Below, one piece after another: positions 3,330-43,574 of a DNA stretch of 64,000 bases. The notes under the pieces were generated by a model. It worked only from the letters and a program-made list of their open reading frames with translations. It was not told the DNA's origin and did no database searches. Made by a program: the position numbers and the translations under genes. The number at the start of each line of letters is the position of its first letter. The stretch's first letter is position 1. Origin of the DNA: Nitrosarchaeum sp. (GTDB taxonomy: Archaea; Thermoproteota; Nitrososphaeria; Nitrososphaerales; Nitrosopumilaceae); assembly GCA_965223865.1 (NCBI GenBank), contig OZ245020.1, positions 1,440,001 to 1,504,000 of the forward strand, in the 5' to 3' direction.

Positions 3330-3397
3330 GCCAAGGGAAATTCAATCATTTTAGGAGGATGATTAACAAGCAGTGGCATCTGCTTTTTCCCCTTGGC
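3330..3397 (-). ncRNA. Candidate three-way-junction small RNA
   Basis: Closing stem GCCAAGGG/CCCUUGGC, inner stems AAGCAG/CUGCUU and AAUCAU/AUGAUU; TAAATA 31 nt upstream; upstream region paralogous to 18988-19041. Confidence 0.6.
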
Positions 3398-3482
3398 TGA
3401 TTAGTCTTAGGCACGTTTTCAATATTTAGGGGTTCTTTTTTGTAGTAATTTTCAAATACTTGCGATCATAAGTAATAGTAGC

Positions 3483-3544
3483 GTCTTTTCAAGGGTTAGA
3501 CGTGGCCTAACGCTAGCTAATGGCAGAACAACAACCCTTTTGAC
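3483..3544 (-). ncRNA. Candidate hairpin small RNA or 3'-UTR structure
   Basis: AAGGGUU/AACCCUU plus inner GCC-UAGC/GUUA-GGC; TTAATC 27 nt upstream. Confidence 0.4.
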
Positions 3545-3571
3545 TAGTTAAATTCCAGTTTTTCAGATTAA

Positions 3572-3850
3572 TCATATTACTTGAACACCGTTCCAGAATG
3601 CCACCATTCCTTTGATTTTTTTGGCAGCATCATTGGGTTCAGCATAATACCATGCACAATCTTTGTTAGTTTTTCCATTGACTGTTACAGAATAGTAATT
3701 TGCCATCCCTTTCCATCCACAAAATGTCGTAAGATCAGTTTTTTCAAAATATTCTGATTTTATAGAATCGATAGGAAAATAGTGATTACCTTCAACTACA
3801 ACGGTATCAGCACTTTCAGCAATTACAACCTCATTCCAAATGGCTTTCAT
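3572..3850 (-). CDS. DUF427 domain protein
   Basis: VVEGNHYFP...CGWKGMANYY...AWYY signature. Confidence 0.9.
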   Translation of the reverse strand: MKAIWNEVVIAESADTVVVEGNHYFPIDSIKSEYFEKTDLTTFCGWKGMANYYSVTVNGKTNKDCAWYYAEPNDAAKKIKGMVAFWNGVQVI

Positions 3851-3934
3851 AGATCATTTACCAAAAAACAATATTTAAAGAAATCCCAATCGGTTTTTTG
3901 AAAAGTCATACATTTCTTATTTTTTGATTGGAAA

Positions 3935-5368
3935 TTATTCGCCTTTCATCTCTTCGCGAGTTTTAAAGCTTGGTGTAATGCCAAGAGATTCATAGTTTCC
4001 AGAAGAGCAAGTAAAGCACATAGAATCTGTTGGCATGCCAACTGCTGCTGCAAGATTTTCTGCATCATTGTATCCTAAAAAGTCAGCTCCAATACTTTGT
4101 CGGACCATCTCAGTTAGTTCTTCATTTGTCATCTCTTTGCCATTTGAAAATGTTGCAAGTTCTTCTTGTGATGGAAAATCAATTCCAGCATAGCAAGGGA
4201 ATTTAATTGGAGGATATGTAATGACCATGCTAATTTTTCTAGCACCTGCTCTTCTTAATGCCTTAATAATTGCCTTTGAGCTTGTACCACGAACCAAACT
4301 ATCATCAATCACAACAACATGTTTGTCCTCAATAATCTCTCTAATTGGAATAATCCATCTGTTAATTTCAATTCTGTCACTCTGATGAGGTTCAATAAAA
4401 CTACGAAGTGGACCTTTCTTGCTGTAACGATCTTTGAGGAGTCCTTCATCAAATGACACTCCCAATTCTTGTGCATAACCTAGTGCTGCAGGTCTTGCAG
4501 AATCCGGAACTGGAATTACAAGATCAGCATCTTTGAGGGGGAATTTTTTGGCCAAAAATTGGCCAATTCTTTTTCTTGATATGTAGATATTAGAGCCTTC
4601 CATATTGCTTGAAGGATGTGCAAAATAGGTAAATTCAAAAGAACAATGAGCTCGTGTCTTGTCTTCAGAAAATAATTCTGTCTGCAAACCCTCTGAGCTA
4701 AGTTTAATCAGTTCACCAGGGCTGACATCTCTTTGTAGTTTTGCACCAACTGCAGAAAGTGCAGAGGATTCGGATGCTACAACATAGGTGTTATCTGATT
4801 CTTTATGTCCTAAAACCATAGGACGAAATCCTTTAGGGTCTCTAGCAGCATATACTGCATTATCATCAGAGATAAATGTAAAGCAGTAAGAACCTACCAT
4901 TTCGTTTTTCAGAATTGAAAGGGCTTTTCCCATTTGTCCTTTTTCAGATATTAATGAAACCAATCTTTGGGCTGCAACAAGCGTATCACTTGCATTTTGG
5001 GGGGTAAATGAACATCCCCCAACCATGTTTGCCAGTTCTTGGACATTTGCAATGGTTCCATTATGTGCAACACAAAGGTCTTTTACTTTGAGGGGTTGAG
5101 CATTTTCAAGATTGCTTTTACCTATAGTAGAATATCTCACATGTCCAATGACTGCAGAGGAGGCATAATCTTCGGAGATTTTTTTAAATTCAGAAGATGA
5201 TGCAGAAACAAGGCCAAGTTTTTTGAGAGGAGGTTTGTTTGGAATTGCAAGGCCCCATGCTTCTTGACCTCTATGTTGAAGCGCTCGTAATGCATCAATT
5301 ACCATCGGAACAACATTTGTTCCACTAAGACTGAAAATTCCAACAACACCACAATTTTCCTTAACCAT
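3935..5368 (-). CDS. purF: Amidophosphoribosyltransferase
   Basis: N-terminal CGVVG, LQHRGQE, PRPP motif VVIDDSLVRGT, Fe-S cysteines. Confidence 0.97.
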   Translation of the reverse strand: MVKENCGVVGIFSLSGTNVVPMVIDALRALQHRGQEAWGLAIPNKPPLKKLGLVSASSSEFKKISEDYASSAVIGHVRYSTIGKSNLENAQPLKVKDLCVAHNGTIANVQELANMVGGCSFTPQNASDTLVAAQRLVSLISEKGQMGKALSILKNEMVGSYCFTFISDDNAVYAARDPKGFRPMVLGHKESDNTYVVASESSALSAVGAKLQRDVSPGELIKLSSEGLQTELFSEDKTRAHCSFEFTYFAHPSSNMEGSNIYISRKRIGQFLAKKFPLKDADLVIPVPDSARPAALGYAQELGVSFDEGLLKDRYSKKGPLRSFIEPHQSDRIEINRWIIPIREIIEDKHVVVIDDSLVRGTSSKAIIKALRRAGARKISMVITYPPIKFPCYAGIDFPSQEELATFSNGKEMTNEELTEMVRQSIGADFLGYNDAENLAAAVGMPTDSMCFTCSSGNYESLGITPSFKTREEMKGE

Positions 5369-7523
5369 GAACTACCAACTCCCTCAACGAATTAATCCAT
5401 GTTTTTTGTGCCTTATCAACTCTTAGATCTATGATATTCTCTGAGTTCTTACTAAATGAGATATTCTTTCCACCAAACTTACCTATCGGATTAAAAGACA
5501 CGTTGTCTTTTTTTAGAATTTCTTTTAGTTTATCTAGATGATTTTTTTCTAAAACTAAAAGATATCTAGAGTGACTCTCAGAAAACAAAACTCTATCCAC
5601 ATCGAGTTTTGGTCCTGGAACATTTTCCAATAAAACATCACAGCCAATTTGGCTAGTCATGCAAAGCTCAGATACGGCAACTGCCAACCCTCCTTTAGAG
5701 CAATCATGAACATTTTTGAGAATTCCTTTTTTGATTATTTGTAAAACTGTATTCATATTCTTTTTTGATTCACTAAAATCAACAACTGGGCATTTTCCAC
5801 CAATAAACTTGTGGATATACTCAAAGTATTCAGAACCACCCATCTCATCTTTGGTATTTCCAATAATCACTAGAACGTCACCTTCAGAAATTTTTTGAGG
5901 AATTTGGGGTTTTTTTGTTAAACCCAAAACTCCAATTAGAGGAGTTGGTTTTATTGGACCTGAAGGGGTTTCGTTGTAAAGGCTTACCTTTCCACCAATG
6001 CATGGAATTTTGAAGTATTTTGCAAAGTCAGTCAATCCCTTGAGAGATTCTAAAAATGTCCAAAAGATTTCAGGGTCTTGTGGATTCCCAAATTGAAGAT
6101 GATCAAGCATTCCTATTGGTTTAGCTCCCGTACAGACAACATTTCTACATGCTTCCTCAAAACATCCTATTGCACCCTCTCGAGGGTTAAGAAAACAATG
6201 TTTTGGATTGCCGTCAATTTTTGCAGATAGAAATTTACCATTATCTAATCTCAAAACGGCTGAATCATTTCCAGGTTTTACTACAGTTCGAATTCCTACC
6301 TCATGATCATATTGTCCATAGACCCAGATTTTACTTGCAATATTTGGAGAAGCCAAAAATTTCATCATAATTTTAGAATAATTTGAAATTGGCTTGAGCT
6401 TTGTTTCTTTTTCTATAGTTTCAAGATATGCCGGTTTTTTTGAAGGTCTGTCTAATAGATCAGCGTTTGCAACAACATCTGTTGGAAGAGCAGCGTAAGT
6501 TTTTTTGCCTTTTTTTACATGCATTATACTATTTGATGTTACTGTACCAATAACTGAACAAACAATTCTGAATTTCTTGCATATTTCTTGAAGTTTTTTT
6601 AGTTTGGTCTTGTTTGTAACAATAAGCATTCTTTCTTGAGATTCAGATATCATAATTTCCTCTGGATGCATTCCAGGTTCTCGCGTATGCACCTTATCAA
6701 CATCCATTTCGATGCCAACAGATAACGCATCTGCAGTTTCAGAAACTGCACAAGATAATCCACCTCCTCCAAGATCTTTCATGGCATTTATGAGATTATG
6801 ATTTCTTGCCTCTAAAATTGCCTCTATGATTAATTTTTCAATAAAAGGATCAGGTATTTGAACAGCAGATCTATCCTCTGACTCTAAAGAGTCAGAGGCA
6901 AATTGTGAACCACCAATTCCATCCCTTCCTGTTGAACCACCAATTAAAACTACAAGATCACCCTTGTTAGCATGGTTTTTTATCAAATTTTCTTTTTTAC
7001 CAAATCCTATTGATGCAACATCAACAAGAGCATAGTTTGTATAGCATTTATCAAACTCTACTTCACCACCTATTGTTGGGATACCTAAACAATTTCCATA
7101 ATCTGCAATTCCAGTAACAGCATTTTTGAAGAGCCATCTTGCCTGTTGATCTTTTTCAATATCCCCAAATCTCAAGCCATCAAATAATGCAATAGGTCGG
7201 GTCCCGGCAGATAAGATATCACGAATTACTCCTCCAACACCTGTTGCAGCCCCACCATACGGTTCTACTGCAGAGGGGTGATTATGACTTTCAATGTGTG
7301 CAGTTACGACATAACCATCCCCGACGTCTAAGACACCTGAATCATATCCTTTTTCAGATATTACCAAAGGTCCTTTCATAGGTAGCATTTTGAGGTGCTT
7401 CTTTGATGATTTGTATGAGCAGTGTTCAGACCATTCAGCTGCTACAATGTGTAACTCTGTTGATGTAGGTTTTCGTCCAATCTTTGATGTAAGATCTTCG
7501 AGTTCTTGTCGCTCTAAACTCAA
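5361..7523 (-). CDS. purL: FGAM synthase subunit PurL
   Basis: WSEHCSYKSS, ESHNHPS, GAATGVGG, DLGGGGL motifs. Confidence 0.97.
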   Translation of the reverse strand: MSLERQELEDLTSKIGRKPTSTELHIVAAEWSEHCSYKSSKKHLKMLPMKGPLVISEKGYDSGVLDVGDGYVVTAHIESHNHPSAVEPYGGAATGVGGVIRDILSAGTRPIALFDGLRFGDIEKDQQARWLFKNAVTGIADYGNCLGIPTIGGEVEFDKCYTNYALVDVASIGFGKKENLIKNHANKGDLVVLIGGSTGRDGIGGSQFASDSLESEDRSAVQIPDPFIEKLIIEAILEARNHNLINAMKDLGGGGLSCAVSETADALSVGIEMDVDKVHTREPGMHPEEIMISESQERMLIVTNKTKLKKLQEICKKFRIVCSVIGTVTSNSIMHVKKGKKTYAALPTDVVANADLLDRPSKKPAYLETIEKETKLKPISNYSKIMMKFLASPNIASKIWVYGQYDHEVGIRTVVKPGNDSAVLRLDNGKFLSAKIDGNPKHCFLNPREGAIGCFEEACRNVVCTGAKPIGMLDHLQFGNPQDPEIFWTFLESLKGLTDFAKYFKIPCIGGKVSLYNETPSGPIKPTPLIGVLGLTKKPQIPQKISEGDVLVIIGNTKDEMGGSEYFEYIHKFIGGKCPVVDFSESKKNMNTVLQIIKKGILKNVHDCSKGGLAVAVSELCMTSQIGCDVLLENVPGPKLDVDRVLFSESHSRYLLVLEKNHLDKLKEILKKDNVSFNPIGKFGGKNISFSKNSENIIDLRVDKAQKTWINSLRELVVHG

Positions 7524-8200
7524 TTTTCAACACCAATAGTGCTTAGAAGAGATTTAAAAATTAGAGAAGATGGTTTGTTATCAATTGGATTGATTTCTGA
7601 TTCTACTGCTCTTTCGGGATGAGGCATCATTCCAACTATGTTATAATCTTCATTACATACACCTGCAATATTATACGAAGATCCATTTACCACCTCAGCA
7701 TATCTAAAAACAATTTGATTGTTTTTCTTTATCTTTTCAAGGACAGATTCATCAACATAATATCTCCCCTCTCCATTTGCAATGGGAATTGGAATTTTTT
7801 GACCTAAAGTAAATTGATTTGTAAAAGGAGTTTTGTTATTTTCTACTATCAAATTCGTCCATTCACACATAAAATTAAGTGATGTATTTTTGAGCAAAAC
7901 TCCAGGCAGCAATCCTGCCTCTACAAGAATTTGAAATCCATTACATACACCCAAAATAGGAATGCCTTTTTCTGCTAATTTTTTTACGTCTTTAATAACA
8001 GGACTATGTGCGGCAATGACACCTGCTCTTAATCTATCACCATAAGAAAATCCTCCAGGTAAAATTATCGCATCAATATTTTTTGGCAGACCTTTTTCAT
8101 GCCAAAAATATTGAGTATTCAAATTAAAGACATCTGTTAAAACATGATACATGTCTCGATCACAGTTACTGCCAGGAAAAACAACGACTCCAATCTTCAC
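7520..8200 (-). CDS. purQ: FGAM synthase glutaminase subunit PurQ
   Basis: FPGSNCD, PGGFSYGD, GVCNGFQ, MMPHPER. Confidence 0.97.
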   Translation of the reverse strand: MKIGVVVFPGSNCDRDMYHVLTDVFNLNTQYFWHEKGLPKNIDAIILPGGFSYGDRLRAGVIAAHSPVIKDVKKLAEKGIPILGVCNGFQILVEAGLLPGVLLKNTSLNFMCEWTNLIVENNKTPFTNQFTLGQKIPIPIANGEGRYYVDESVLEKIKKNNQIVFRYAEVVNGSSYNIAGVCNEDYNIVGMMPHPERAVESEINPIDNKPSSLIFKSLLSTIGVEN

Positions 8201-8266
8201 ATTTGTTTTTACTCAAGGAGATATTTAATTTGAATCCAGCCAAATGAATTTATGTGAAGAATTCCC

Positions 8267-8698
8267 TTGATCGCCATGGCACATATACGTGACATTATGG
8301 AAAAAAATGTTGTAACAATAGAACATGAAAAAAATGCACTTGATGCTGCCAAATTACTAAAAGAAAAAGAGATCAGTTTTTTGGTCATAATTAAGGATAA
8401 TAGTCCAATAGGAATTGTTTCGGAGAGAGATTTTGTAAAAAAAGTTGTTGCAGAAGATAAGGTAGCATCAACAATGTCCCTTGAAAGCATAATGTCAAAA
8501 AAATTTAGATGGGTACAGCCAGATAGTAAAATTGAAGATGCGGTACAAAAAATGCTAAACAATAACATTCGAAGATTACTAGTTTTAGAAAAGGAGAAAC
8601 TTGTTGGAGTGATTACTCAAACGGATCTTACCAGCTTTCTCAGAAGTAAACTGCTGATTAATGGAACAATTGAGAATATAGAAGAAGAAAATTCTTAG
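8267..8698 (+). CDS. CBS-domain pair protein
   Basis: GIVSERDF and GVITQTDL CBS motifs. Confidence 0.9.
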   Translation: MIAMAHIRDIMEKNVVTIEHEKNALDAAKLLKEKEISFLVIIKDNSPIGIVSERDFVKKVVAEDKVASTMSLESIMSKKFRWVQPDSKIEDAVQKMLNNNIRRLLVLEKEKLVGVITQTDLTSFLRSKLLINGTIENIEEENS

Positions 8699-8955
8699 AC
8701 CTCAAAAACATCTATTGTTACCTTGCTGACCATAGGATTGTAAATCCTCAATTCATCACAAATTTCCTGAACCCTTTGTTTAGCTGTTTTGATACTTTTT
8801 TCCTTTATAGTAAACTTTAGCATTTTAGCAGTTTTGATTTTTGATATTGTAGAATTGGTACCTTTCAAAACAAGGTCATTTAGAATTGTGTCTCCTTCTG
8901 GATCACTAATTCCGGGTTTGTTTTCAATAATTACATGAACATCATAGGTAGCCAT
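8695..8955 (-). CDS. purS: FGAM synthase subunit PurS
   Basis: KPGISDPEG...NP motif; next to purQL. Confidence 0.9.
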   Translation of the reverse strand: MATYDVHVIIENKPGISDPEGDTILNDLVLKGTNSTISKIKTAKMLKFTIKEKSIKTAKQRVQEICDELRIYNPMVSKVTIDVFEV

Positions 8956-9036
8956 GAGTATTTTTGAAATTCAAAGTGAGGTTAATCTATCTTCCGACCA
9001 GAATTGTGCTTTTATACTAAAAATAAAAAAGAAATC

Positions 9037-9096
9037 AGATACCCGATTCTGAGGACTTGTGTTGTTGTTAGGCAAATAACCCAGAATCGGTTATCT
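9037..9096 (-). other. Long hairpin plus T-tract directly after a stop codon (terminator-like or structured 3' UTR)
   Basis: 15-bp stem AGAUAACCGAUUCUG/CAGAAUCGGGUAUCU with one mismatch, then UUUCUUUUUU. Confidence 0.55.
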
Positions 9097-9488
9097 TAAT
9101 CATTTTTAGTTTTGAAATTATTTTTGACATATTCTGTGTACTTTCTGTAAAGTCCAGATTCATAATTAGGATTCTGAGTTATTAGAGATTTTTTAATCAA
9201 GTCTTCTTTTGAATGAAGCATGTTTTTTTCAAAAATGCCCTTATTGTCTAATACAATACAAAGGTCTTGCCAAAGTGATACTTCATTTGGATTTCTATTT
9301 GCAGTAGCATAGTAAACATAAAGTAATCTTAATTTATTGTATTCATCAAGATTCAAATCTTTTCCAAGAAGATACTTTCTTCGTAATTTCTGAAAAAATA
9401 TCAATCCCTCTTTTGTCAGAACATAATCAAATAGTTTAGGATAGTCATCAATGTCTATTGGGTGTAATGGATTTTGAGAAACCAACAC
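9096..9488 (-). CDS. Hypothetical protein
   Basis: 130-aa ORF with ordinary composition. Confidence 0.7.
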   Translation of the reverse strand: MLVSQNPLHPIDIDDYPKLFDYVLTKEGLIFFQKLRRKYLLGKDLNLDEYNKLRLLYVYYATANRNPNEVSLWQDLCIVLDNKGIFEKNMLHSKEDLIKKSLITQNPNYESGLYRKYTEYVKNNFKTKND

Positions 9489-9744
9489 TCTAGATTATTT
9501 TTATCTAGTTTTTTATTTTATGATTTGAATTTTGTATTTTCATTAGAAATAAAATTCAACGTATGAAAAGATGATGGATAGAAAGGGACGGCTATATCTA
9601 CATGAAGATATATTTTTTCATATTTGTTTAATCTAGGGAACAGAAAATATAAGTTATTGAATTTCAGATGAGATTTAGCCTTAAAAGAGAACAAAGTCAC
9701 CCTAAACATTGGAATTTATATCTCATTTATACTGTAATTAATCA

Positions 9745-10209: not shown

Positions 10210-10237
10210 ATAAGGTAGTTTACGATATAGAATTCAG

Positions 10238-11029: not shown

Positions 11030-11056
11030 ATCTAAAATAGGTCAATACAAAGTAGA

Positions 11057-11688: not shown

Positions 11689-11691
11689 TAA

Positions 11692-13645: not shown

Positions 13646-13681
13646 CCAAAAAAACATTTTTATCAAATCTTGATTTAGAAT

Positions 13682-13805
13682 TTTGTTAATTGGCTAGATT
13701 AGGAAATATAAAGAATACCTAACGTTTTGTTTCAAATAATTAAACGGTTTGATGTTTGAAATGGAATTGCTGTATGCCAATTAACAAATATGCAAACTCT
13801 TTTTT
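13682..13805 (+). ncRNA. Candidate three-way-junction small RNA
   Basis: Perfect 13-bp inverted repeat 13682-13694/13776-13788 enclosing two hairpins; TTTTATC ~27 nt upstream; T-tract at ~13800. Confidence 0.6.
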
Positions 13806-13827: not shown

Positions 13828-14088
13828 ATGTCAAGAACAGTATTCATTCGTGAAATTATTTTAGCGCCTAAAGAACCAAAACTATGTCCCAATTGTGAAA
13901 AGTATGATAGATTAGAAAAAGATATTGTTTTTGAAAGAAGATCAGATGGAAAAACCATTATTTGCACAAGATGTGAGGCTTTGATGGTCATAACAAACCA
14001 GAATCTAAAAAAAGTAGAGTTAGAAGGGTCAAGAGATTATTCAATTATGCTAAAAGAACCACATCTGATTCGAAAAATAACGTATTAG
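13828..14088 (+). CDS. Small zinc-ribbon protein
   Basis: CPNC...CTRC. Confidence 0.75.
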   Translation: MSRTVFIREIILAPKEPKLCPNCEKYDRLEKDIVFERRSDGKTIICTRCEALMVITNQNLKKVELEGSRDYSIMLKEPHLIRKITY

Positions 14089-18870: not shown

Positions 18871-18909
18871 AAGCAGCAATTATGTTTTCAAAGTCCATAA
18901 AAAATAATT

Positions 18910-18998
18910 GCCAGGGAAGAGTGGTATTGAATGATTTACAACAAGATAGAGTATTTGGTCGCATGAAAATGAAGCTATCCTCTTGTAACTCCCCTGGC
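18910..18998 (-). ncRNA. Candidate stem-closed small RNA, paralog of 3330-3397
   Basis: GCCAGGG/CCCUGGC closing stem, inner UUACAA..GAUAG/CUAUC..UUGUAA; TAAATA 31 nt upstream; T6 downstream. Confidence 0.6.
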
Positions 18999-19073
18999 TG
19001 ATCAATGTTAGACACGTTTTTAGTATTTAGAGATTCTTATTTTAATTCTCAAAATCTGTATTTTAAAAACGCT

Positions 19074-19315
19074 GCAGGTTATGAACGAATTATTCGTGTT
19101 GGTTATATGTAAAAATACAATAACAGAATCATGCAATAATGCATTTGTTTATCGTTTAACTGACCATATTTTCTACGATAATGCTTCATCTGTTTCCACA
19201 AGAGTCATTTTTGGCACCATTGCATTTTTTGATTTAAAGTTGGACAAGGGTAAGGCAGATACATTAACCATCAGATGAATATTCAGAAACAACACTAGTA
19301 GATTTTGCATTATGA
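19074..19315 (+). ncRNA. Candidate two-domain structured RNA (overlaps doubtful ORF 19081..19278)
   Basis: Several short stems, long-range UUCAUCUG/CAGAUGAA and AUAAUGC/GCAUUAU, linker motif shared with 42509-42573. Confidence 0.35.
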
Positions 19316-19403: not shown

Positions 19404-19519
19404 TGAGTTTTCAGAACTCAGGCCTAACCGCGCGTAAGGGTCAAAGAAAACCGATTTTCCGACATCACGGGAAGACGTCATTGGTTAATGGCTAATTTCC
19501 GTGCTGATTGGAGCTAATC
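19404..19519 (+). ncRNA. Candidate GC-rich structured RNA (or 30-aa ORF 19403..19495)
   Basis: UGAGUU/AACUCA, GGCCU/GGGUC and a long hairpin containing CACGGGAA/UUUCCGUG; CTTAAC ~28 nt upstream. Confidence 0.5.
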
Positions 19520-19709
19520 TAATTCTAGATGACAATTTAAGAATGAATAAAATTTGAATATAATTAAGAAAAATTTCACTAATTTTTCTAATTTACAAGC
19601 TTTTTGACTTGAAGGATTTTTTAATTTTCTATATCACATCGAGTATTTCATAAAAATTTCAAAGATTAAATCAATATTTTAAATGAAATAATAGTAATAA
19701 AATAACAGA

Positions 19710-26290: not shown

Positions 26291-26405
26291 TTACCTCATC
26301 TGAAATCCTATCATTTTTGATTAATGTAATGACAGGATAAAAAAACTTTTGAAAATTCATTTTGTGGAAATTATCAAACACGATCAAACTACGCTCTCAA
26401 AAAAA

Positions 26406-26548
26406 TTAAGCAGAAGGCAAGATGTTTCCATCTTCAAGATTCAGTTCATGCTCTGAACTGAGCAAAGTGACCATTGTCACTTTTATTACGCTTATTTCAT
26501 CGTAATTGATCAATTTCTTGACCATCTCTGAGCCTTTCTGCGCTTTAC
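26406..26548 (-). ncRNA. Candidate multibranched structured RNA
   Basis: Six compatible helices, TAATAT ~30 nt upstream, T7 tract immediately downstream. Confidence 0.6.
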
Positions 26549-29426: not shown

Positions 29427-29549
29427 ATGAGTCAACAAATTACTCAAAATAAGAACAAGAAGGAAGTTTCTAAAGCAAAAGTGTATGCAAAAGTCTACCG
29501 TAAAATGATTCGTCAAATGGTGAAAAATTCTCAAGACGAATGTTTGTAG
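29427..29549 (+). CDS. 40-aa basic microprotein
   Basis: MSQQITQNKNKKEVSKAKVYAKVYRKMIRQMVKNSQDECL. Confidence 0.4.
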   Translation: MSQQITQNKNKKEVSKAKVYAKVYRKMIRQMVKNSQDECL

Positions 29550-29772
29550 AGTAATGCACCAAGCAGTTAGAAATTTAGCAGCAAAATTAATTCAGAATGG
29601 TTTAATCAATAATACAAGGTAATTTTTGTACAATAAAGATTACAATGTTATTTAGCAGTACAAAAATTTGCCATTAGAATAATAAAAAACACTAACGATG
29701 TCAAAATACTATAAGTTACTATTAATCTAACAAATTCTGCGTATCATTTTAGTCAAAAAAGGAGTACAATTT

Positions 29773-29832
29773 CATAGGCAGGAGAATCACTTGTTCGGCC
29801 CACAAGTCAAACATCATATGACCCTGCTTATG
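29773..29832 (+). ncRNA. Candidate hairpin RNA with internal loop
   Basis: 10-bp CAUAGGCAGG/CCUGCUUAUG (one G-U) enclosing ACUUGU/ACAAGU. Confidence 0.4.
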
Positions 29833-35725: not shown

Positions 35726-35833
35726 TTAGACATTATTGTCTTGGTTATCTGAACTTACACCTATAGCAGCAAGAATGTGTCCAGTGGTATCGGCAATAAA
35801 ATCAACAGCTACATCTAGCAAATCTTCAGCCAT
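35726..35833 (-). CDS. 35-aa microprotein
   Basis: MAEDLLDVAVDFIADTTGHILAAIGVSSDNQDNNV; TTAATA ~27 nt upstream of ATG. Confidence 0.5.
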   Translation of the reverse strand: MAEDLLDVAVDFIADTTGHILAAIGVSSDNQDNNV

Positions 35834-35999
35834 ATTGAAAATACATGGATGATCTATTAAGCATTATTCCACGTGGGCGTTATTCCAAATACCATAACCA
35901 TATCTCCATACATGTTGTACTCCCAATCAAATTTGAACTAGAACTTACGCTTTACGACAAGTGTCATAAATCCACGCCTAATTTGGGGGATTTCTATTT

Positions 36000-38192
36000 T
36001 TACTCTTTGTCAATGAATTCATTAACTCCTGGGGGTTCAGGTGCAAGTCCTTTTCTCTTTCTAATGTCAGCAATTGCTGTAGCATGCATTGATTTTGGAA
36101 CTTCAGACCATTCCTTAAAGGAGGTATTCCAAGTTGCACGCCCTGCAGTTTGACCTCTCATCTCTTCAGATAAAGTAAATGTCTCGGAAGCTGGGATCTC
36201 ACCTGTTACGATACTTGAGGCACCCTTTTGTACCATATCAAGTACTTTGCCACGTTTACCAGAAAGCACAGTTGCAACATTTCCAACCAAATCAGTTGGA
36301 ACTCTAACCTCAATTGCTAGCATTGGTTCTAAGATTGTAGTGCCAGCAGTTAATAGTGCACCCATACAGGCACGTCTAGATGCAGGACCCAATTGAGATA
36401 AGCCCCTGTGAGCAGTATCCTCATGAGGAACAAAGTGAGTAAAGATGAATTTACAGTCCCTCATCTGTTCTTTACATAGAGGACCCTCTTTCATTACTTC
36501 TTCAAATCCAGAATTAATTGAATCAGTAGATTCTTGAACAAACTGAACACCTTTAGTGCCATTTATCAAAACATTTCCACGAGAATCAAACTTCATGACT
36601 CTTTTAATGGTATCAGTATCCCAACCTTCTTTCTTGAGAAGATCAGATACCTCTTTCTTATCTTTCATGTCGCTAATTTGACCAGTTCTAAGCATGTTAG
36701 CAATAGCAGGCTCTAAGGGTTCAACTTTCATGAATATCTTGTTGTGTCTGTTTGGAGATTTTGACATGATTGGCTCACATGTTCCTTTGACAGTTTCTCT
36801 GTAATTGATAAGTGGTTCAGATGTAATAATTTCCACTTTAGCATCTTGGATTCTATGGGTTGCAACATCAAGATGCAGTACACCCATTCCGGCAACAATT
36901 GTTTCACCGCTTTCCTCATCGATTTTAACTACCAAGTTAGGATCTTCAATGGTTAATTGTTTTAGAACTTCAACTAGTTTTGGCAAATCCTTAGGATGTT
37001 TTGGTTCAACTGCAACTTGAACAACGGGTTCTGATACGTACTTTACACCTTCAAACAAAGGCATCTCTTTAATTGATGACACAGTATTTCCTGCTCTTGC
37101 TTCAGTTAATCCCAAAAGTGCAGGGATGTTTCCAGAACCAAGTTCACCGACTTGTTCTCTTTGGTTACCCATGAAAAAGTTAACAGATTGAACTCTTCCT
37201 TCTCTTTTTGCATCAATAATGTTAATTGTTTGACCATCCTTTATTTTTCCAGAAAATAGTCGTCCTATGGCAACAGGTCCTGCTGCAGGATCCAAAACCA
37301 TATTTACAATCATCATAATTGTTGGACCATCATCACTACAGGCAAGCAATGCTTTTCCAATATCTGAATCTAAATCTCCGTGCCAAATTTGAGGAATTCT
37401 GTAACGTTGTGCCACGTGTGGTGGAGGATGATGTTTTACAACCATTCCCAATACGGCATCGGCCAATGGGGCTTTTTCTACTAGGTCAGCGACTTTTTCG
37501 TTTTGATATGCATCAATAACATCTTTGAAAGTAATTCCTCTCTCTTTCATCAGGTCAATATTGATAGCCCATCTATCTTTTGCAGAGCCAAATGTAACAC
37601 TTGCATCCTGAATAGATACTTTCCATTGTTCCTTGTATTCTGGTTCAGCATAGGTGTCAACTAACTGATTAAAGTTTGATACAACATTTGCAAGTGTTTC
37701 TTGCATTTTTTCAGGAGTTAATCGTAATTCCTTGATGAGCCTATCGACCTTGTTAATGAAGAGTACAGGTTTTACACGCTCTTCAAGTGCCATTCTAGTT
37801 ACTGTTTCAGTCTGAGTCATGATTCCCTCTACGGCATCACAAACTACTACTGCACCATCAATGGCCCTAAGACTTCGGATAACTCTACCACTAAAATCTA
37901 CGTGTCCTGGAGTATCAATCATGTTAATGACATATTCAGTTCCCTTTTGTGCAAAGTGTAAGGTAACGTTTGCCTGGTAAATTGTAATTCCCCTTTCTTG
38001 CTCCTCTTTGTCAAAATCCATTGCCAATGCCTTTCCAGCAGCTGATGGAGCAATAATTCCTGAATAAGCTAAAAGGCTGTCACTCATGGTAGTTTTTCCA
38101 TGGTCAACATGAGCAATAACACCAAAGTTTCTAATTTGGTCCTTATTTTTGATAATTTTCAAAACTTCGCCTGTCGACTTGAATTTTACCAT
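36000..38192 (-). CDS. fusA: Translation elongation factor aEF-2
   Basis: AHVDHGKTT, ERGITI, DTPGHVDF, NKVD; HEDTAHRG diphthamide loop. Confidence 0.98.
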   Translation of the reverse strand: MVKFKSTGEVLKIIKNKDQIRNFGVIAHVDHGKTTMSDSLLAYSGIIAPSAAGKALAMDFDKEEQERGITIYQANVTLHFAQKGTEYVINMIDTPGHVDFSGRVIRSLRAIDGAVVVCDAVEGIMTQTETVTRMALEERVKPVLFINKVDRLIKELRLTPEKMQETLANVVSNFNQLVDTYAEPEYKEQWKVSIQDASVTFGSAKDRWAINIDLMKERGITFKDVIDAYQNEKVADLVEKAPLADAVLGMVVKHHPPPHVAQRYRIPQIWHGDLDSDIGKALLACSDDGPTIMMIVNMVLDPAAGPVAIGRLFSGKIKDGQTINIIDAKREGRVQSVNFFMGNQREQVGELGSGNIPALLGLTEARAGNTVSSIKEMPLFEGVKYVSEPVVQVAVEPKHPKDLPKLVEVLKQLTIEDPNLVVKIDEESGETIVAGMGVLHLDVATHRIQDAKVEIITSEPLINYRETVKGTCEPIMSKSPNRHNKIFMKVEPLEPAIANMLRTGQISDMKDKKEVSDLLKKEGWDTDTIKRVMKFDSRGNVLINGTKGVQFVQESTDSINSGFEEVMKEGPLCKEQMRDCKFIFTHFVPHEDTAHRGLSQLGPASRRACMGALLTAGTTILEPMLAIEVRVPTDLVGNVATVLSGKRGKVLDMVQKGASSIVTGEIPASETFTLSEEMRGQTAGRATWNTSFKEWSEVPKSMHATAIADIRKRKGLAPEPPGVNEFIDKE

Positions 38193-38241
38193 ATTCGCAA
38201 ACCGAGTTATTCAGCTATTAAACCTTATGAGAAAATCAGGA

Positions 38242-39174
38242 TCAATAGATCATAATATCACTTACATTACGAAATTTTTTTGCCAATACAAAGTGACAGT
38301 CTTGTTGGCCTCTTTTTTTGGCTTCAAATAATGGTAACAATTGTGAAAAAAATGCATAGTAAAGTACATTTGATATCTTGTTTTTGGATTTAAAATCAGG
38401 ATGAATTACAGTCAATCCAATTTTTTTCAAGCTTTTTGCAAGTTGTATGGTGTGAAGGTTCTTTTCTTCAAAAATTATCACAGTGTCTCCTTTTTTGGCA
38501 GAAAACAACTCCATATGAGAAAATTGCTCTATTTTCTCAAAATGTACATCATGTCCCAAAATTTCATAAAATTTTGCTGCACAATACATGGCCAAAGGAT
38601 ATGTTGTTAAATTTCCCAAGACAAAGATTCTTTTTGAGAATTTTGATTTTTTTGCATCTGAATATGCTTTTTTGTAGATTTTATTACCATCAGGAATTGT
38701 GATTTTTTTTACAAGAGATATGCAGGTTAGCGCACTATCCAAGAAGCTTATGCTTCCAGCAGTAAATACATCAGAGTTTGGAGATTTTAAGGGAATTGTA
38801 TTGGTACATACATTTGACAATTTACTAGCCGAATTTGATGTAATTGCAATTGATTTTTTGGCTGTTTTTGCTACTTTGATGTTAGATATGGTTTTTCCAG
38901 AAATTGAAACAAAGTAGACAGCCTTATTTTTTGACAGATTCTTATTTTTTAACAGATCAAGAGGATCAATTGCTTTTACTTTGAAATTTGAAAAAGACTC
39001 TGCAAGCATTGCAGATGCTAATGAATCACCACTGCCTGTAAAAATTGTGTTTTTTTGCTGATTCTCAGATAGCGTTTTTTGTTTTTGAAATTTTTTTAAA
39101 AATTCAACTTGGAGTTGAATGTCATTTTCATATGCCTCTAGTGTCTTCAATGATAAACTAAAACAATGTTGCAT
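38242..39174 (-). CDS. SIS-domain sugar isomerase-like protein
   Basis: FTGSGDS, SISGKT, second SIS half (KFYE...FSH). Confidence 0.85.
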   Translation of the reverse strand: MQHCFSLSLKTLEAYENDIQLQVEFLKKFQKQKTLSENQQKNTIFTGSGDSLASAMLAESFSNFKVKAIDPLDLLKNKNLSKNKAVYFVSISGKTISNIKVAKTAKKSIAITSNSASKLSNVCTNTIPLKSPNSDVFTAGSISFLDSALTCISLVKKITIPDGNKIYKKAYSDAKKSKFSKRIFVLGNLTTYPLAMYCAAKFYEILGHDVHFEKIEQFSHMELFSAKKGDTVIIFEEKNLHTIQLAKSLKKIGLTVIHPDFKSKNKISNVLYYAFFSQLLPLFEAKKRGQQDCHFVLAKKFRNVSDIMIY

Positions 39175-39284
39175 ATATTAGAAAAACTATTGAGCCGATC
39201 ATTTCTTGAATTAATTTAAAGTATTGATGTAAAAAAATCAAAATAAATATTTTGATTTTTATAACCACAAAGTACGGAGAAAAT

Positions 39285-40112
39285 GTGGAAATTTCTGTAG
39301 GACATACACCTGATTCAGATGATGCATTCATGTTTTATGGTATGTTTACTGAAAAGATTTCATCGCCAGATTTTACAGTAAAACATGTTATTGAAGATAT
39401 TGAAAAACTAAACAAAAAAGCTACAAATCCAGAACTAGATGTAACTGCAGTATCTGTTCATGCATGTGCGTATATTCCTGGATACACAATTTTGAGAAGT
39501 GGTGGAAGTTTTGGTATCGGATATGGTCCAATTGTTACTTCAACAAAGCAAATGACAATTGATGAAATCAAAAAAGCAAAAATTGCAATTCCAGGTAAGA
39601 TGACATCTGCATTTTTATTATTACAACTAATGATTGGGAAATTTGATTATGTTGAGATGAATTTTAGTGATATTCCAGAGGCAGTAAAATCAGGTAAGGT
39701 TGATGCAGGTCTTGTAATTCATGAGACTCAGCTATCCTATGAACAAGAAGGCAACGTAAAGATTTTAGATGTCGGTGAATGGTGGGATAAAACTACAGGA
39801 GGATTACCTGTACCATTAGGAATCAATGTAATGAAGACAAGCCTAGGTATGGAATTAATTCATAAATTCGATAAATACCTACAAGAATCAATCGAATACG
39901 GATTACAGCACTTAGATGATGCAATAGAATATGCCATGCAATACAGTAGAGGAAAATCAAGAGATTTAATTGAAAAATTTGTAAAAATGTATGTAAACAA
40001 AGTTACTATCAACATGGGAGATAAAGGAGAAGAATCAATCAGGAGATTGTTTGAAATGGCAAAAGAGAAGAATCTTGTTCCAGAATTTGAACTAAGTATT
40101 GTCATCAAGTAA
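39285..40112 (+). CDS. mqnD: 1,4-dihydroxy-6-naphthoate synthase (MqnA/MqnD family)
   Basis: GHTPDSDDAFMFY, GYGPIV, GLVIHE, PVPLG; GTG start 39285 preferred. Confidence 0.85.
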   Translation: MEISVGHTPDSDDAFMFYGMFTEKISSPDFTVKHVIEDIEKLNKKATNPELDVTAVSVHACAYIPGYTILRSGGSFGIGYGPIVTSTKQMTIDEIKKAKIAIPGKMTSAFLLLQLMIGKFDYVEMNFSDIPEAVKSGKVDAGLVIHETQLSYEQEGNVKILDVGEWWDKTTGGLPVPLGINVMKTSLGMELIHKFDKYLQESIEYGLQHLDDAIEYAMQYSRGKSRDLIEKFVKMYVNKVTINMGDKGEESIRRLFEMAKEKNLVPEFELSIVIK

Positions 40113-40138
40113 TTATATCACAAAAATTCGTCAAATTC

Positions 40139-40429
40139 ATGGGAGATGGAATTGGAGGACCAGTTATTGAGTGTCTGTCTCATAACGCATTTCAGTTATT
40201 AATAACACATTTTCGTAAAGACAATAAAGAAGAATACGGAAAAACTGAAAAGATAATTATCGCAAAAATTGATGATCCAGACAATCCTCAATATGAGGAA
40301 CCAACACATGAGGATTTGGAGAGGGCTCTGAAGGGAAAATTTGTTTCATGTAATGTACAATATAGAGATTCTAAAACAGATGCTCTGGTTTGTAATGTAT
40401 TTGTTCAAAAACCTCCAGAAGGTTTCTAG
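40139..40429 (+). CDS. Hypothetical protein
   Basis: 96-aa ORF. Confidence 0.7.
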   Translation: MGDGIGGPVIECLSHNAFQLLITHFRKDNKEEYGKTEKIIIAKIDDPDNPQYEEPTHEDLERALKGKFVSCNVQYRDSKTDALVCNVFVQKPPEGF

Positions 40430-40486
40430 TGCCAAGCTATAGAAAATCCCTAAAATATAATAAAAACAAATTACTAGTGATAATAA

Positions 40487-40765
40487 ATGTTCTTGGTAGA
40501 TAAAAAAATTCTTTCTGGAGGAATTGCTATGTTAATTGTTGGAGGAGTAATTTTACTATATTTGAATTCAGTAGTTCCTGCAGGTCAAGCTGGAATGACG
40601 GAGGAAGAGATTCTAGAATTAATGATTAAAGAGCAAGAAAATCAAGACATGAATACCCTTGCGGGAATTCTATTTGGAGTAGGATTTTTGTTGGTTTTAA
40701 TCAGTTTTGGGGCAAGAAGAAGGAAAGGCAGTGCCAAAAAAGAAGAAAAAAAACCAGCAGAGTAA
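40487..40765 (+). CDS. Small two-TM membrane protein
   Basis: Two hydrophobic helices, basic tail. Confidence 0.75.
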   Translation: MFLVDKKILSGGIAMLIVGGVILLYLNSVVPAGQAGMTEEEILELMIKEQENQDMNTLAGILFGVGFLLVLISFGARRRKGSAKKEEKKPAE

Positions 40766-40859
40766 ATTAAAACCGTTTAGTTCAGAACTAATTTAATTCT
40801 AAATTCTCTGAGTGAAAATAAGCAAAACCAATAACAATAATTTCTAATTGTATAGTATT

Positions 40860-41081
40860 ATGCATTGTAATGGAATCTGTGTGAATTACAAGGCTACTAG
40901 TAATAGCTCTGAAGGAGGCAGATATGAACAGGGCCAAAAACGATGTCACGAATGTGAAATATTCATCAAATGGGAGGGTCTTTGGTGTCCATGCTGTGGA
41001 CACTTGTTAAGAACAAAACCTAGAGGTACAAAATTAAAACGCAGATTATTATTAAGAAAACGAGATAGAGAAGAAAATTAA
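40860..41081 (+). CDS. Small Cys-rich zinc-finger protein
   Basis: CNGIC...CHEC...CPCCG..LRTKPR. Confidence 0.8.
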   Translation: MHCNGICVNYKATSNSSEGGRYEQGQKRCHECEIFIKWEGLWCPCCGHLLRTKPRGTKLKRRLLLRKRDREEN

Positions 41082-41142
41082 CGAGTCATCTTCAAATGAC
41101 AATTTTAGAAATTAATGATAATTAAGGATTGAATTCAAATAG

Positions 41143-41385
41143 GTGTATTATTTTTGTTCTAGCGGGTCAGATTTGAAAATCATCATTAAAAACAGCAATC
41201 CGATCAGATTTTATCATCATCCTAGAGAGGTAACCATTCATCCAAAAACTAAAACTGTTAAGACCTTTAATGCAGATGGTTCTTTACTTGAAACATTCAA
41301 GCTTGTTAACAAAGAAACATCATGGAATGAAGATTTTGAAAATGACCAAACTGAAATCATAATCACTTTGCATGTTGAAAAATAA
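41143..41385 (+). CDS. Hypothetical protein
   Basis: 80-aa ORF, start probably at internal TTG. Confidence 0.55.
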   Translation: MYYFCSSGSDLKIIIKNSNPIRFYHHPREVTIHPKTKTVKTFNADGSLLETFKLVNKETSWNEDFENDQTEIIITLHVEK

Positions 41386-41490
41386 AAAAAATTAGACTTT
41401 TGCTTCATATTTTGCTAGTCAAAGTCTCATCAATTACATCTAATTTGCAATCATACTAGAAGAAACAACTCTTATCAAAAGGGACAAAGT

Positions 41491-41724
41491 CTAAAATTTT
41501 AGAGTTTTTTTCTTGATAGCATCTTTGATTATCTCAACATATTGTTCTATGATGCAATCTCTCAAAGAAGTTGGCATTTCACTAACATCAAACTTTTCTA
41601 TCATCTTTGATTTCTTTCTTACCACAAATCTTACTGGACGTGGAACATTTTCAGTATATTTTTTGTTAACGTAATCTATGATTTCTTCAATATCGGATTT
41701 ATCCATCGTATTATTGTTGTTCAA
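41491..41724 (-). CDS. Hypothetical protein
   Basis: 77-aa ORF. Confidence 0.65.
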   Translation of the reverse strand: MNNNNTMDKSDIEEIIDYVNKKYTENVPRPVRFVVRKKSKMIEKFDVSEMPTSLRDCIIEQYVEIIKDAIKKKTLKF

Positions 41725-41790
41725 TGTTGTAAATAAGTTAACATTACAATGTCAGAATTTAGTTTTTCAAATTTTAGGGATTAAATGTTT

Positions 41791-41907
41791 CTAGTCGTAC
41801 TCTATTTTTTTACTTTCACAAATTGGACATACAATTCTAAGAACTACCACATGCAAAATCTCAGACTTGCAGGATTTACATCGAAAGTTACGCATTGTAA
41901 TTCTCAT
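41791..41907 (-). CDS. 38-aa zinc-ribbon microprotein
   Basis: MRITMRNFRCKSCKSEILHVVVLRIVCPICESKKIEYD. Confidence 0.6.
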   Translation of the reverse strand: MRITMRNFRCKSCKSEILHVVVLRIVCPICESKKIEYD

Positions 41908-42508
41908 GGGATCACAGTTTCTTTTTAGAGATTAAAGAGAAGGTTATTGTGAAATCAATTGAATTTTTTTTGGACTTTGGTTTATCAACAACATTTCTAA
42001 AACTTGATTCTAACAGGGCATACATCAAGTCGTCAAAATGTTTTTGAATTTCTTTTGCTTTTTCCATTATGGTTAATTTAGAACATATGTAATAATACTG
42101 AGATTTTTCAATGTAGCTAAAAAGTTATAATTTCAGCTAATGTACATTTTTGTCTTTTGTACATCCATATTTTTTGGGAGGTAGTCTTGTTAATTGAATT
42201 TCCGTACAAGTATTCAATCTATCTCCTTCTTTTTTCCCAGATTTAATTCAAAATTGAATAAGAGCTAAATATTATTTCTCAAATGCATGGAATACAGACT
42301 CTAAATTACCACTGCTATTAGAGTAATGCAATATTTCTCCATGAGGCAGGGTAGTTTTGCCAACATACTTCATTATTCCATCCTTACAAAATTTGTTTAA
42401 AAGCTTGATGAATGATTTATCACTAACATGAATTAACGCTGAAACAAGACTATCCACGAATTCATAATTTATAAAAAAACAAATCAAAATTTGTTAAAAT
42501 AGAAGGTA

Positions 42509-42573
42509 CCTGACTGCAAGACTCCCATGGCAGCCAGGATATGGTCGGTTAAACGGTATGGCAAGTGCTTAAC
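42509..42573 (-). ncRNA. Candidate two-hairpin small RNA (or 26-aa ORF 42484..42564)
   Basis: GUUAAGC/GUUUAAC, linker CGACCAUAU, CCUGGCUGC/GCAGUCAGG; TTTATC 30 nt upstream. Confidence 0.55.
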
Positions 42574-42879
42574 TTAATTTTGTATTAACACATATCAGAT
42601 AAAAGGGAAATGGTATGTATTAGTAATTTTTTTATGTTGTTCTACAAAGTGGTCATGGATACCACAAAAATTTTAATCCAAAATTATTATTAGATTGATT
42701 TACTTAATTTAGACATCAATAAACCGCATATACATAAATTGTAAAGAAAAATTTGATTACCCTATGAAATATTGGGGAGATCAATCCCACAGGTGGTGCT
42801 CTCAACAACATAAGGAATTATTTGAAGAGAAAAATAATTTAAAAAATAAATTACCTGAGACCTCTTTTGTAAATAAGAA

Positions 42880-43188
42880 GTGATAGTAATGGGTTTAGAT
42901 TCTGAGATTAAATTAACAAAAGAAGAATTAGATAATATTGAAAAATGTTTTGAGACAGATAGAGTAAAAATTACTCAACAATTTGGGCATGATGATAACG
43001 CTGATATGAGTCTTCAACTCTTTAAAACATTCAAACAGCAAATACTATTGAATCAAGAAATAGCTGAAAGACTTCGAGAACGACAAGATTATCACTTATT
43101 ATGTGAGGGTAAATTTGAATCAGGGTCGGATATTGCTCGATATCATCATGCCATTTGGGAAGAGCTAAATCAAATTGAGAAAGGATAA
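42880..43188 (+). CDS. Hypothetical protein
   Basis: 102-aa ORF. Confidence 0.65.
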   Translation: MIVMGLDSEIKLTKEELDNIEKCFETDRVKITQQFGHDDNADMSLQLFKTFKQQILLNQEIAERLRERQDYHLLCEGKFESGSDIARYHHAIWEELNQIEKG

Positions 43189-43349
43189 TTCCCAATAATC
43201 ATATTTACGATTTCGTTGTTTCATCTTATAATTTTAGAAAAAAACAAAGCAGTTCAAAATATAATTAAAATAATTTTCTTATTATCTAAAGACGATCTTA
43301 TTGCAAATAAGAAATAAACGATACAAGAGATTCAGATTTGAGTTTAAAA

Positions 43350-43417
43350 ATAGAATTGATGGACGCCTAGAGAATAGATGACTTGAAAGGTGGCGCCCAT
43401 CAAATCTGTGGCTTAAC
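43350..43417 (-). ncRNA. Candidate hairpin small RNA
   Basis: 12-bp UUGAUGGGCGCC/GGCGUCCAUCAA, TATATA 28 nt upstream of a GUUAAGC start, T5 downstream. Confidence 0.5.
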
Positions 43418-43574
43418 GTAATAAGTTATGATTTACAAGTATATAGATTTTAGTATATACTAAATAAACAAGTACAAAATAGATAATCAAAATTATCTTT
43501 ATACGACTGTTAATGGCAAATTTCTATCAAGAGACAAACTTGTTAATAAAGAAAAAAATCAGTACCAAATAGTA

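Follow-up and report, generated by a model that had tools for sequence, protein, structure and literature searches.

Intergenic regulatory small RNAs (sRNAs) have been surveyed in other archaea, namely Haloferax, Methanosarcina, Sulfolobus and Pyrobaculum (e.g., PMC3388794). RNAs of this class are spacer-encoded, measure 50-150 nucleotides (nt) and come with their own B recognition element (BRE)/TATA promoter and an oligo-U end, often lineage-specific and mostly without a known target. Here we describe candidate elements of this kind in a 64-kb stretch of a Nitrosarchaeum sp. chromosome (genome G000, C1:1440001-1504000; the window), in which an initial annotation had flagged eleven intergenic stems as promoter-driven, stem-closed sRNA candidates. 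Each element is designated c followed by the start position at which it was flagged. Comparison with related genomes suggests that the window probably holds six or more real sRNA genes, which would fall into four or more uncatalogued families. In contrast to their general likeness to other archaeal sRNAs, they bear no sequence or structure relation to them (no Rfam match at E ≤ 5).

Ammonia-oxidising archaea are among the most abundant microbes of ocean and soil and drive nitrification, and to our knowledge almost nothing has been recorded about their post-transcriptional regulation. Our search of the literature found no paper describing sRNA genes of Nitrosopumilus, Thaumarchaeota or ammonia-oxidising archaea; the main-text passages of PMC5069720 and PMC13475601 mention only Thaumarchaeota transcript starts or signal recognition particle (SRP) and ribonuclease P (RNase P) RNAs and not the RNAs discussed here, and their supplements might list thaumarchaeal starts.

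According to our interpretation, the sRNA genes would be transcribed independently, each from its own BRE/TATA-type promoter ~26-29 nt upstream of a purine start, and each RNA would be closed by a terminal helix, with most ending in an oligo-U tract. The four families would comprise the sibling genes A/B (3400→3329 and 19001→18910, minus strand), family C (minus-strand c42509, with 19081-19230 as a probable further member), c29773 (plus strand) and c13682. Conserved promoters at a fixed distance, strand-specific pairing, covariation, and the copy number and distribution of the elements, as they appear in the alignments, argue for this interpretation.

The window belongs to a 2.01-Mb genome with 34% G+C and has ordinary chromosomal gene content (purF/L/Q/S, tatCA, EF-2, mqn genes and plastocyanin-like proteins), with spacers of 28.8% G+C. 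Synteny is maintained within the genus, the nearest relative being G004 (88-93% identity), and G006, G005, G003 and G018 are 71-85% identical to the window. Footprinting against G004 was non-discriminating, with an identity of 0.87 in coding and 0.77 in non-coding sequence and many entire spacers at 0.91-0.95. Homologs were counted by BLAST among 101 genomes of the family unless otherwise stated, and consensus structures and paired-column counts were obtained with RNAalifold from homolog alignments. Fold z-scores were computed against 200 dinucleotide shuffles on both strands; 202 intergenic 80-nt segments, taken on both strands (404 strand-windows), served as the fold background and 796 intergenic 70-nt segments as the G+C background.

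The c13682 RNA and its zinc-ribbon neighbour

The best-supported element is c13682, a predicted RNA of ~120 nt on the plus strand (13685-13805) delineated by BLAST, an alignment of homologs (A4) and a covariance model. It is predicted to form a three-way junction in which helix P1 pairs 13685-13694 with 13776-13785; hairpin 1 presents GAAAUAUnnUGAAUAC as a loop that hardly varies, and hairpin 2 comes next, followed by the tail AAUAUGCAAACUCUUUUUU. Homologs were found in 25 of the 101 genomes, covering 8 of 27 genera. In the 22 sequences of alignment A4, 10 of the 21 pairs have both sides changed, and 96.5% of 457 pair cells are paired, compared with 24-49% in controls with slid partners. The covariation score of 0.319 exceeded the shuffle mean of 0.230 and was reached by none of 500 shuffles. 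P1 is 100% paired and runs through the series UA/UG/CG, AU/GU and CG/UG/UA, which fixes the RNA on the plus strand. Genera g27, g36 and g37 have a different sequence in place of the middle domain.

Within the spacer, the block from UUGUUAAUUGG to CCAAUUAACAA is kept in G000, G004, G006, G005 and G018, whereas the 5' flank diverges. A TATA-like box (13657-13664, plus strand) precedes the RNA, and an A/T-rich, TATA-like box stands at a similar distance, ~25-30 nt upstream, in all homologs listed; the tail AAUACAAACUCUUUU is present in most of them. Of 23 family genomes sampled with the covariance model, 10 contained the RNA, the own-genome match being window 13681-13800; a search of 127 genomes from the order's other families gave eight weak, repeat-like matches, all in one genome.

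The RNA is linked to an 86-amino-acid (aa) open reading frame (ORF) with two CxxC motifs of zinc-ribbon type (13828-14088, plus strand), which adjoins it in 20 of 23 loci. The RNA immediately precedes the ORF in 17 of these and follows it in the three loci of genus g27. The other neighbour is purP, in 15 of the 23 loci. No family in Pfam or NCBIfam matched the 86-aa protein, and its Atlas neighbours are hypothetical proteins of Nitrososphaerota. c13682 may work with, or control, the zinc-ribbon protein.

The probable sibling genes A and B, family C and c29773

Types A (c3330, 3329-3400) and B (c18910, 18910-19001) are predicted sibling sRNA genes on the minus strand, each seen in a four-copy alignment. 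They have a 45-nt flank in common, which on the minus strand reads AAAGAAYCYC-TAAATA, then 22-24 nt, then AGCCA(A)GGGG. For type A this promoter occupies 3401-3445, the AAAGAA block being followed by the TATA element TAAATA (3423-3428) 22-24 nt 5' of AGCC, and for type B the same promoter lies at 19002-19046 (TAAATA at 19024-19029). The promoter AAAGAAYCYCTAAATA... is common to all eight copies, each with TAAATA at the fixed distance of 22-24 nt to AGCC. These copies come from three genomes: two from G000, at least five from G004 (two syntenic, one additional B, and one tandem of A and B with the B promoter directly 3' of A) and one from G001. Searching 201 genomes of the family with the pattern TAAATA-N21-25-AGCCARRGG gave two matches in G000, three in G004 and one each in G001, G041 and G125, the last two lacking the remainder of the promoter, i.e., six true copies and two others; the reversed control of this pattern gave none in the same 201 genomes.

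In type A, an 11-bp closing stem containing a G-U pair surrounds two inner hairpins, the second of which carries the loop CAUCCUCCU. Three of its 25 predicted pairs have both sides changed among the four copies, one closing-stem pair is G-U in two copies and A-U in the other two, and the fold z-score is -4.06 on the minus strand versus -2.79 on the plus strand. Type B has a 10-bp closing stem with G-U pairs, an inner 9-bp hairpin and a U6 tract (18899-18904), and four of its 24 predicted pairs have both sides changed. The closing-stem G-U pairs of both types would be A-C on the plus strand, and in type B several pairs of this stem are G-U in the minus-strand orientation only.

The type A loop AAUCAUCCUCCU was compared with the 3' end of the 16S rRNA of the same genome (GGAUCACCUCCUUAG / GAUCACCUCCU), which contains the anti-Shine-Dalgarno (anti-SD) sequence. 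The form CAUCCUCC(U/C) is kept in three of four copies and the tandem copy reads CAUCUUCCC; type B is devoid of such a loop motif. SD-like motifs stand upstream of 102 of 1347 long ORFs in contrast to 23 at a shifted control offset. By mimicking the anti-SD end, the type A loop might occlude ribosome-binding sites.

Two other interpretations of these genes were dropped. A C/D-box reading of the c3330 plus strand (GGAUGAUU...CUGAUUAG) was abandoned, as the gene lies on the minus strand and the boxes are lacking there. A type I toxin-antitoxin arrangement of B with neighbouring small ORFs is not supported because duplexes of A and B with their divergent neighbours showed no special complementarity and matched shuffles: RNAduplex against 200 shuffles gave z +1.25 for B and +0.86 for A with 19060-19300, -0.02 for A with 3446-3571 and -0.13 for B with c19404.

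Clusters of tiny conserved ORFs accompany the A/B and C elements (window 19081-19278; G000 C1:1229900-1231200; L023; L025). They comprise ORFs of 40 aa, MSKKE..DWKRLEKWHIGRRNF (three copies), of 30-35 aa, MSKQ(V/I)Y(R/K)Q(K/R)ID(L/P)DSFDRE (two copies), and of 31-65 aa, MNxxFVLVICKN..SCNGAFVYRLxDH (six copies).

Family C is represented in the window by c42509 (42496-42573, minus strand), which has orthologs in G004 and G006 and is found in these three of the 101 genomes. A TATA element at 42599-42604 (CCCUUUUAUC) is followed ~28 nt downstream by the 5' end GUUAAGC, a first hairpin with a G-U pair, a core in an unpaired stretch (42540-42556), a second hairpin (42530-42538 paired with 42509-42517) and a U-tract. 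Where hairpin 2 has G-U in G000, the G004 and G006 orthologs have A-U, and its loop varies in length. An 18-nt perfect match of c42509 found in the antisense search was rejected as a target: it proved to be homology and opened up the family, whose shared core is CCGUUUAACCGACCAUA.

Further family C genes of G000 lie at C1:1886390(+), 1982581(-) and, in a diverged form, 745145(+). These T-type genes keep the same order of TATA, 5' domain, core CCGUUUAACCGACCAUA, a hairpin of different sequence and CCUUUCAAAUUAUUUUU. The three perfect 17-nt cores of G000 lie in elements with a common layout of TATA, core, hairpin and U-tract and with differing hairpin sequences. Seven T-type copies from G000, G004 and G001 share 18 pairs, many of them G-U, and leave the 3' part of the core unpaired; the TATA element CTTTTAWR occurs in all seven and in the three c42509 orthologs. 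With up to one mismatch, a 16-mer of the core is present four times in G000 and five times in G004, whereas 59 further family genomes that were sampled lack it; beyond that count, perfect copies number two in G001, and the one copy in G006 has an insertion. The flanks of C1:1982581 and C1:745145 have a further conserved upstream block, AGUAUUUAGAUCAUACUGAUGAUUC, in common, which on its opposite strand contains CTAAATAC, the same TATA type as in the A/B promoter, and this suggests divergent promoter pairs.

A second element of the window probably belongs to family C, judging from its core match. It extends over 19081-19230 on the plus strand, carries the core UCGUUUAACUGACCAUA (19152-19168; two mismatches to the family C core in G000 and one in the G004 ortholog) and a T6 tract (19225-19230), and overlaps a 65-codon ORF (19081-19278). 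The first ~29 codons are kept in six copies; the frame ends after 31-33 codons in three, and DNA similarity continues past these early stops to the conserved T-tract. The element may therefore be an RNA, a peptide gene or both. The initial annotation had listed its 5' part separately as c19074. As a separate element c19074 dissolves into this longer one, and as a conserved hairpin it finds no support either, given its fold z-scores of +0.28/-0.94 and, by inspection, its loss in other copies.

The c29773 sRNA (29773-29832, plus strand) occurs in five copies in three of the 101 genomes. A 9-10-bp closing stem delimits the RNA, which contains the invariant unpaired segment GUCAAACAUCAUGUGA, and an upstream block, UCUAAnAAAUUCUnCGUAUUCCUUUUUAGUCAAAAA (~29718-29757), is present in all five copies. 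Of the 19 pairs of the alignment, pairs 11-19 make up the 9-bp closing helix, which every copy keeps intact, with one pair changing from GC to UA and another from AU to GU. On the plus strand, the fold z-score is -3.27.

The segments that stay both invariant and unpaired, namely the anti-SD-like loop of type A, the family C core and the c29773 16-mer, might enable families A/B, C and c29773 to base-pair in trans. We put these specific pairing mechanisms forward tentatively and consider them rather doubtful.

The remaining elements and tests across the set

c9037 is a hairpin on the strand of the pur operon (9038-9095, minus strand) with homologs in 13 of the 101 genomes. It starts one base after the stop codon of ORF 9096-9488 and ends 13 nt before the invariant TATA block of purS, whose TATA element is at 9009-9017. 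Six of its 12 pairs have both sides changed among 12 aligned sequences, and one pair is G-U in 11 of the 12 if read on the minus strand but would turn into A-C in the opposite orientation. This combination of covarying pairs and strand-specific G-U pairing points to a structure conserved at the RNA level. Half of the loop is conserved (ACAACAAYACA-AGUCCUCAG), whereas the T-run behind it is not. A TATA element read backwards would make the hairpin a promoter-driven sRNA of the plus strand, which it is not. Rather than an sRNA gene, c9037 may be a 3'-end or insulator element, which at the 3' end of the upstream transcript could insulate or modulate the purS promoter. Next to it, the purS promoter block UAAGUAUAAAAGC (8975-9017, minus strand) shows no variation in 11 of 12 genomes of five genera, and a block ~20 nt downstream of it, UCGGAAGAUAGAU, is invariant in 10 of the same 12.

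Support for two further candidates is limited. c19404 (19404-19530, plus strand) is a three-hairpin element downstream of the 19081 element, with a paralog at C1:1230288(-), an ortholog in G004 and an incomplete counterpart in G001; by eye, the outer stem of its hairpin 3 changes from C-G to U-A in G004 and the loop palindrome from CGCGCG to CGUACG. c26406 is a candidate RNA of ~150 nt (26399-26548, minus strand) found only in G000 and G004, its region not being alignable in G006. It has the 5' end GUAAAGC, a closing stem in which 26532-26541 pairs with 26410-26418, a set of three hairpins and, at 26399-26405, a U7 tract, and its fold z-score is -4.06, falling to -5.6 in a window scan. Two substitutions in hairpin 3 in G004 stay paired by eye as G-U and U-G, on the minus strand only.

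c43350 (43345-43417, minus strand) is an orphan with a TATA-like element CTATATAC (43439-43446), the 5' end GUUAAGCC, a 12-bp stem (43392-43403 with 43356-43367), a U5 tract (43346-43350) and the best fold score of the set (z -5.22). Searches of 60 other genomes of the family gave no credible homolog and only chance matches of ≤33 nt, and the entire spacer is different in G004. c3483 is a G+C-rich stem region of unset strand just 3' of a DUF427 gene (3483-3545). Its fold z-scores are +0.72/-0.97, and homolog searches found nothing beyond G004, in which the 63 nt are identical. As an sRNA gene it thus has nothing in its favour beyond identity in the closest relative.

Across the set, intergenic stems are present at all eleven positions, in the sequence as well as in the predicted folds. 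Fold z-scores against dinucleotide shuffles, a check suggested by the initial annotation, reach ≤ -3 on at least one strand in six elements (c3330 -4.1, c9037 -4.9, c13682 -4.2, c26406 -4.1, c29773 -3.3 and c43350 -5.2) but not in the other five (c3483, c18910, c19074, c42509 and c19404). As z < -3 and z < -2 also occur in 2.5% and 7.2% of the 404 background strand-windows, hairpin stability is only modestly above chance for elements picked by eye. Spacer G+C is at or above the 95th percentile of the intergenic background in eight of the eleven; c13682, with 27% G+C, is not among them. The look-alike 5' ends could be confirmed, with GUUAAGC at c42509(-) and c43350(-), GUAAAGC at c26406(-) and GUUAAUU at c13682(+). 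A strictly defined TATA-like hexamer at -26 to -34 is found at 6% of intergenic positions and is therefore informative only if conserved; by inspection, such a hexamer precedes A, B, c13682 and c42509, four of the seven elements with an assigned 5' end. G-U pairs, a TATA element at fixed distance and often a U-tract do agree on the strand of most elements, as had been claimed, although the set is heterogeneous.

Rfam 15 yielded no match at gathering thresholds in the whole 64 kb, and at E ≤ 5 there were seven weak matches between 2800 and 44000, none overlapping a candidate. The expectation that the candidates are neither tRNA nor SRP, RNase P or CRISPR-type RNAs was borne out: ARAGORN found no tRNAs, and no covariance model of these identities in Rfam 15 matched a candidate. 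In homolog alignments, pairing is kept through wobble or compensatory changes in eight of the eleven elements, the exceptions being c3483, the c19074 hairpin and c43350. The description as promoter-driven, stem-closed sRNA genes outside Rfam accordingly holds for most of the set, while c19074, c3483, c43350 and c9037 deviate from it. Its attribution to ammonia-oxidising archaea at large was too broad: only c13682 (25/101) and c9037 (13/101) extend beyond the genus, and the other families were found only in three to four closely related genomes.

Several other features of the window deserve mention. A repeat of ~75 nt (35865-35945) in the spacer between the glyoxalase and EF-2 genes has 10 matches in its own genome and many more in G004 and G006, with no obvious fold. 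The strongest hairpin of the background scan (41-120, plus strand; z -7.0, -24 kcal/mol) is single-copy and lies outside the range 3330-43446 covered by the flagged elements. A 77-aa zinc-ribbon ORF (CxxC...CPCC; 40848-41081, plus strand) is multi-copy, with seven DNA matches in its own genome and matches in all five relatives searched. Two unannotated ORFs on the plus strand, a Cys-rich one (2975-3100) and a Lys-rich one (29427-29552), each of 41 aa, are conserved in G006 and/or G004.

Alternative explanations and comparison with known systems

The elements could instead be cis-acting parts of neighbouring mRNAs, i.e., hairpins of 3' untranslated regions or terminators, or 5' leaders; c9037 and c3483 would then be the 3' ends of upstream minus-strand genes, c13682 a regulated leader or attenuator of the zinc-ribbon ORF and c19404 the 3' part of the 19081 transcript. 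Their positions are compatible with this: c9037 follows a stop codon after a single base and has a T-rich run behind it in G000, c3483 lies ~30 nt past the DUF427 stop, c19404 is downstream of a C-like element in three copies, and the c13682 RNA, which immediately precedes the ORF in 17 of 23 loci, has a U-tract that ends 22 nt before the ATG of the 86-aa ORF in G000. However, c13682 has its own conserved TATA-like box and is downstream of the ORF in genus g27, the T-run of c9037 is not conserved whereas its loop sequence is, and A, B, C and c29773 stand with conserved promoters at unrelated loci. We regard a cis-acting role as unlikely for the set as a whole. We judge it very improbable that the inverted repeats act as DNA, be it as operators or insulators, recombination or attachment sites, or small mobile repeats with outward promoters. 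The multi-copy, lineage-restricted occurrence of A/B, C and c29773 in variable regions near tiny-ORF clusters, with tandem and divergent pairs, would suit such a role, as would the 13 nt between c9037 and the purS TATA box and the conservation of the blocks upstream of A/B and c29773 well past the TATA box. Yet strand-specific G-U wobbles, which would be meaningless for double-stranded DNA, keep the pairing of c9037 (11/12), c13682 P1 and the A/B and C closing stems, and the stems covary while the loops vary in length. Neither terminal inverted repeats nor target-site duplications were noticed, in an analysis that included no search aimed at them.

For c3483, c19074, c43350 and possibly c26406, there is about an even chance that they are fortuitous hairpins in A/T-rich spacers or by-products of small protein genes. 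The background rate of z < -3 (2.5% of intergenic strand-windows) favours this, as do the folds of c3483 and c19074, which are no better than shuffles, the lack of a c43350 homolog in 60 genomes, and the overlap of c19074 with a conserved start codon and reading frame. Against it, a TATA-like box at -25 and a U5 tract accompany the z-score of -5.2 in c43350, and both changes of c26406 in G004 preserve wobble pairing on the strand with the U7 tract. For the other seven elements, covariation excludes chance.

Returning to the proposal of independently transcribed sRNA genes, a number of observations weigh against it. Discrete transcription is something that we infer from comparative evidence, and most families consist of few, closely related copies, so that their covariation rests on 1-4 pairs. 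Fold z-scores are unremarkable for type B, c42509 and c19404 (plus strand, -2.41). The stem of type A is not followed by a U-tract, the U6 of type B in G000 is not kept in all copies, and neither is the U-tract of c42509. In most genomes, 20-40 nt separate c13682 from the ORF that follows it, so that c13682 could be a 5' leader instead of a separate gene, and the start codon and ~29 conserved codons at 19081-19278 mean that this element may encode a peptide. Moreover, A/B duplexes with neighbouring transcripts were no better than shuffles, and an antisense BLAST for targets gave, family members excepted, only 12-16-nt matches at chance level (E > 0.01).

The copy counts across three to four genomes (~8 for A/B, at least 14 for C and five for c29773), often in divergent or tandem arrangement beside tiny-ORF clusters, allow a more far-reaching picture, in which a small clade would have recently expanded sibling riboregulators, type A would be an anti-SD decoy tuning the minority of SD-led mRNAs, and a thaumarchaeon-specific zinc-ribbon protein would have c13682 as its RNA subunit or dedicated regulator, the two forming a new, conserved ribonucleoprotein of Nitrosopumilus-type archaea. 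We consider this picture as a whole decidedly unlikely.

Coordinates, strands, predicted ends and alignments are now given for several RNA families, among which c13682 combines strong cross-genus covariation with a fixed protein partner gene. These families could enter catalogues, and such genes would then no longer be left unannotated. The elements also teach that in A/T-rich spacers, hairpin stability and a TATA-like box are insufficient on their own.

Among known systems, archaeal box C/D and H/ACA guide sRNAs are likewise small, structured, spacer-encoded and conspicuous by their G+C content. In contrast to box C/D guides, a regular-expression search over 12 sense sequences found no RUGAUGA, and CUGA occurs only internally, in four of them. 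Nor was the hairpin-pocket-ACA layout of H/ACA guides seen, in an analysis that included no search aimed at K-turns or rRNA complementarity: no ACA follows the closing stem in elements other than c13682, and there the ACA overlaps the final two P1 pairs in 21 of 22 sequences and the interior is a three-way junction, not a two-strand pocket.

Termination in archaea generally depends on the U-tract, and a hairpin is not known to be required. c9037 and several of the sRNAs, in which a hairpin is followed by a T-rich run, resemble archaeal U-tract terminators (PMC8716108); unlike in such terminators, the c9037 stem and half of its loop are kept across genera, whereas the T-run varies. Leaders of ribosomal-protein genes form autoregulatory RNA-protein pairs. 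c13682 resembles them in being structured and in standing beside, and mostly directly upstream of, a small zinc-ribbon gene of nucleic-acid-binding type, but differs in its own promoter, in the reversed order in one genus and in a protein partner without a known family.

The 'cuckoo' sRNAs CcsR1-4 of Alphaproteobacteria reportedly occur as several siblings per genome, sometimes in tandem, with C/U-rich anti-SD-like hairpin loops. Although they come from another domain of life, show no homology to them, have one loop per RNA and include B siblings without it, the A/B genes resemble the CcsR RNAs in their several siblings per genome, in the type A loop CAUCCUCCU and in the tandem A+B pair of G004.

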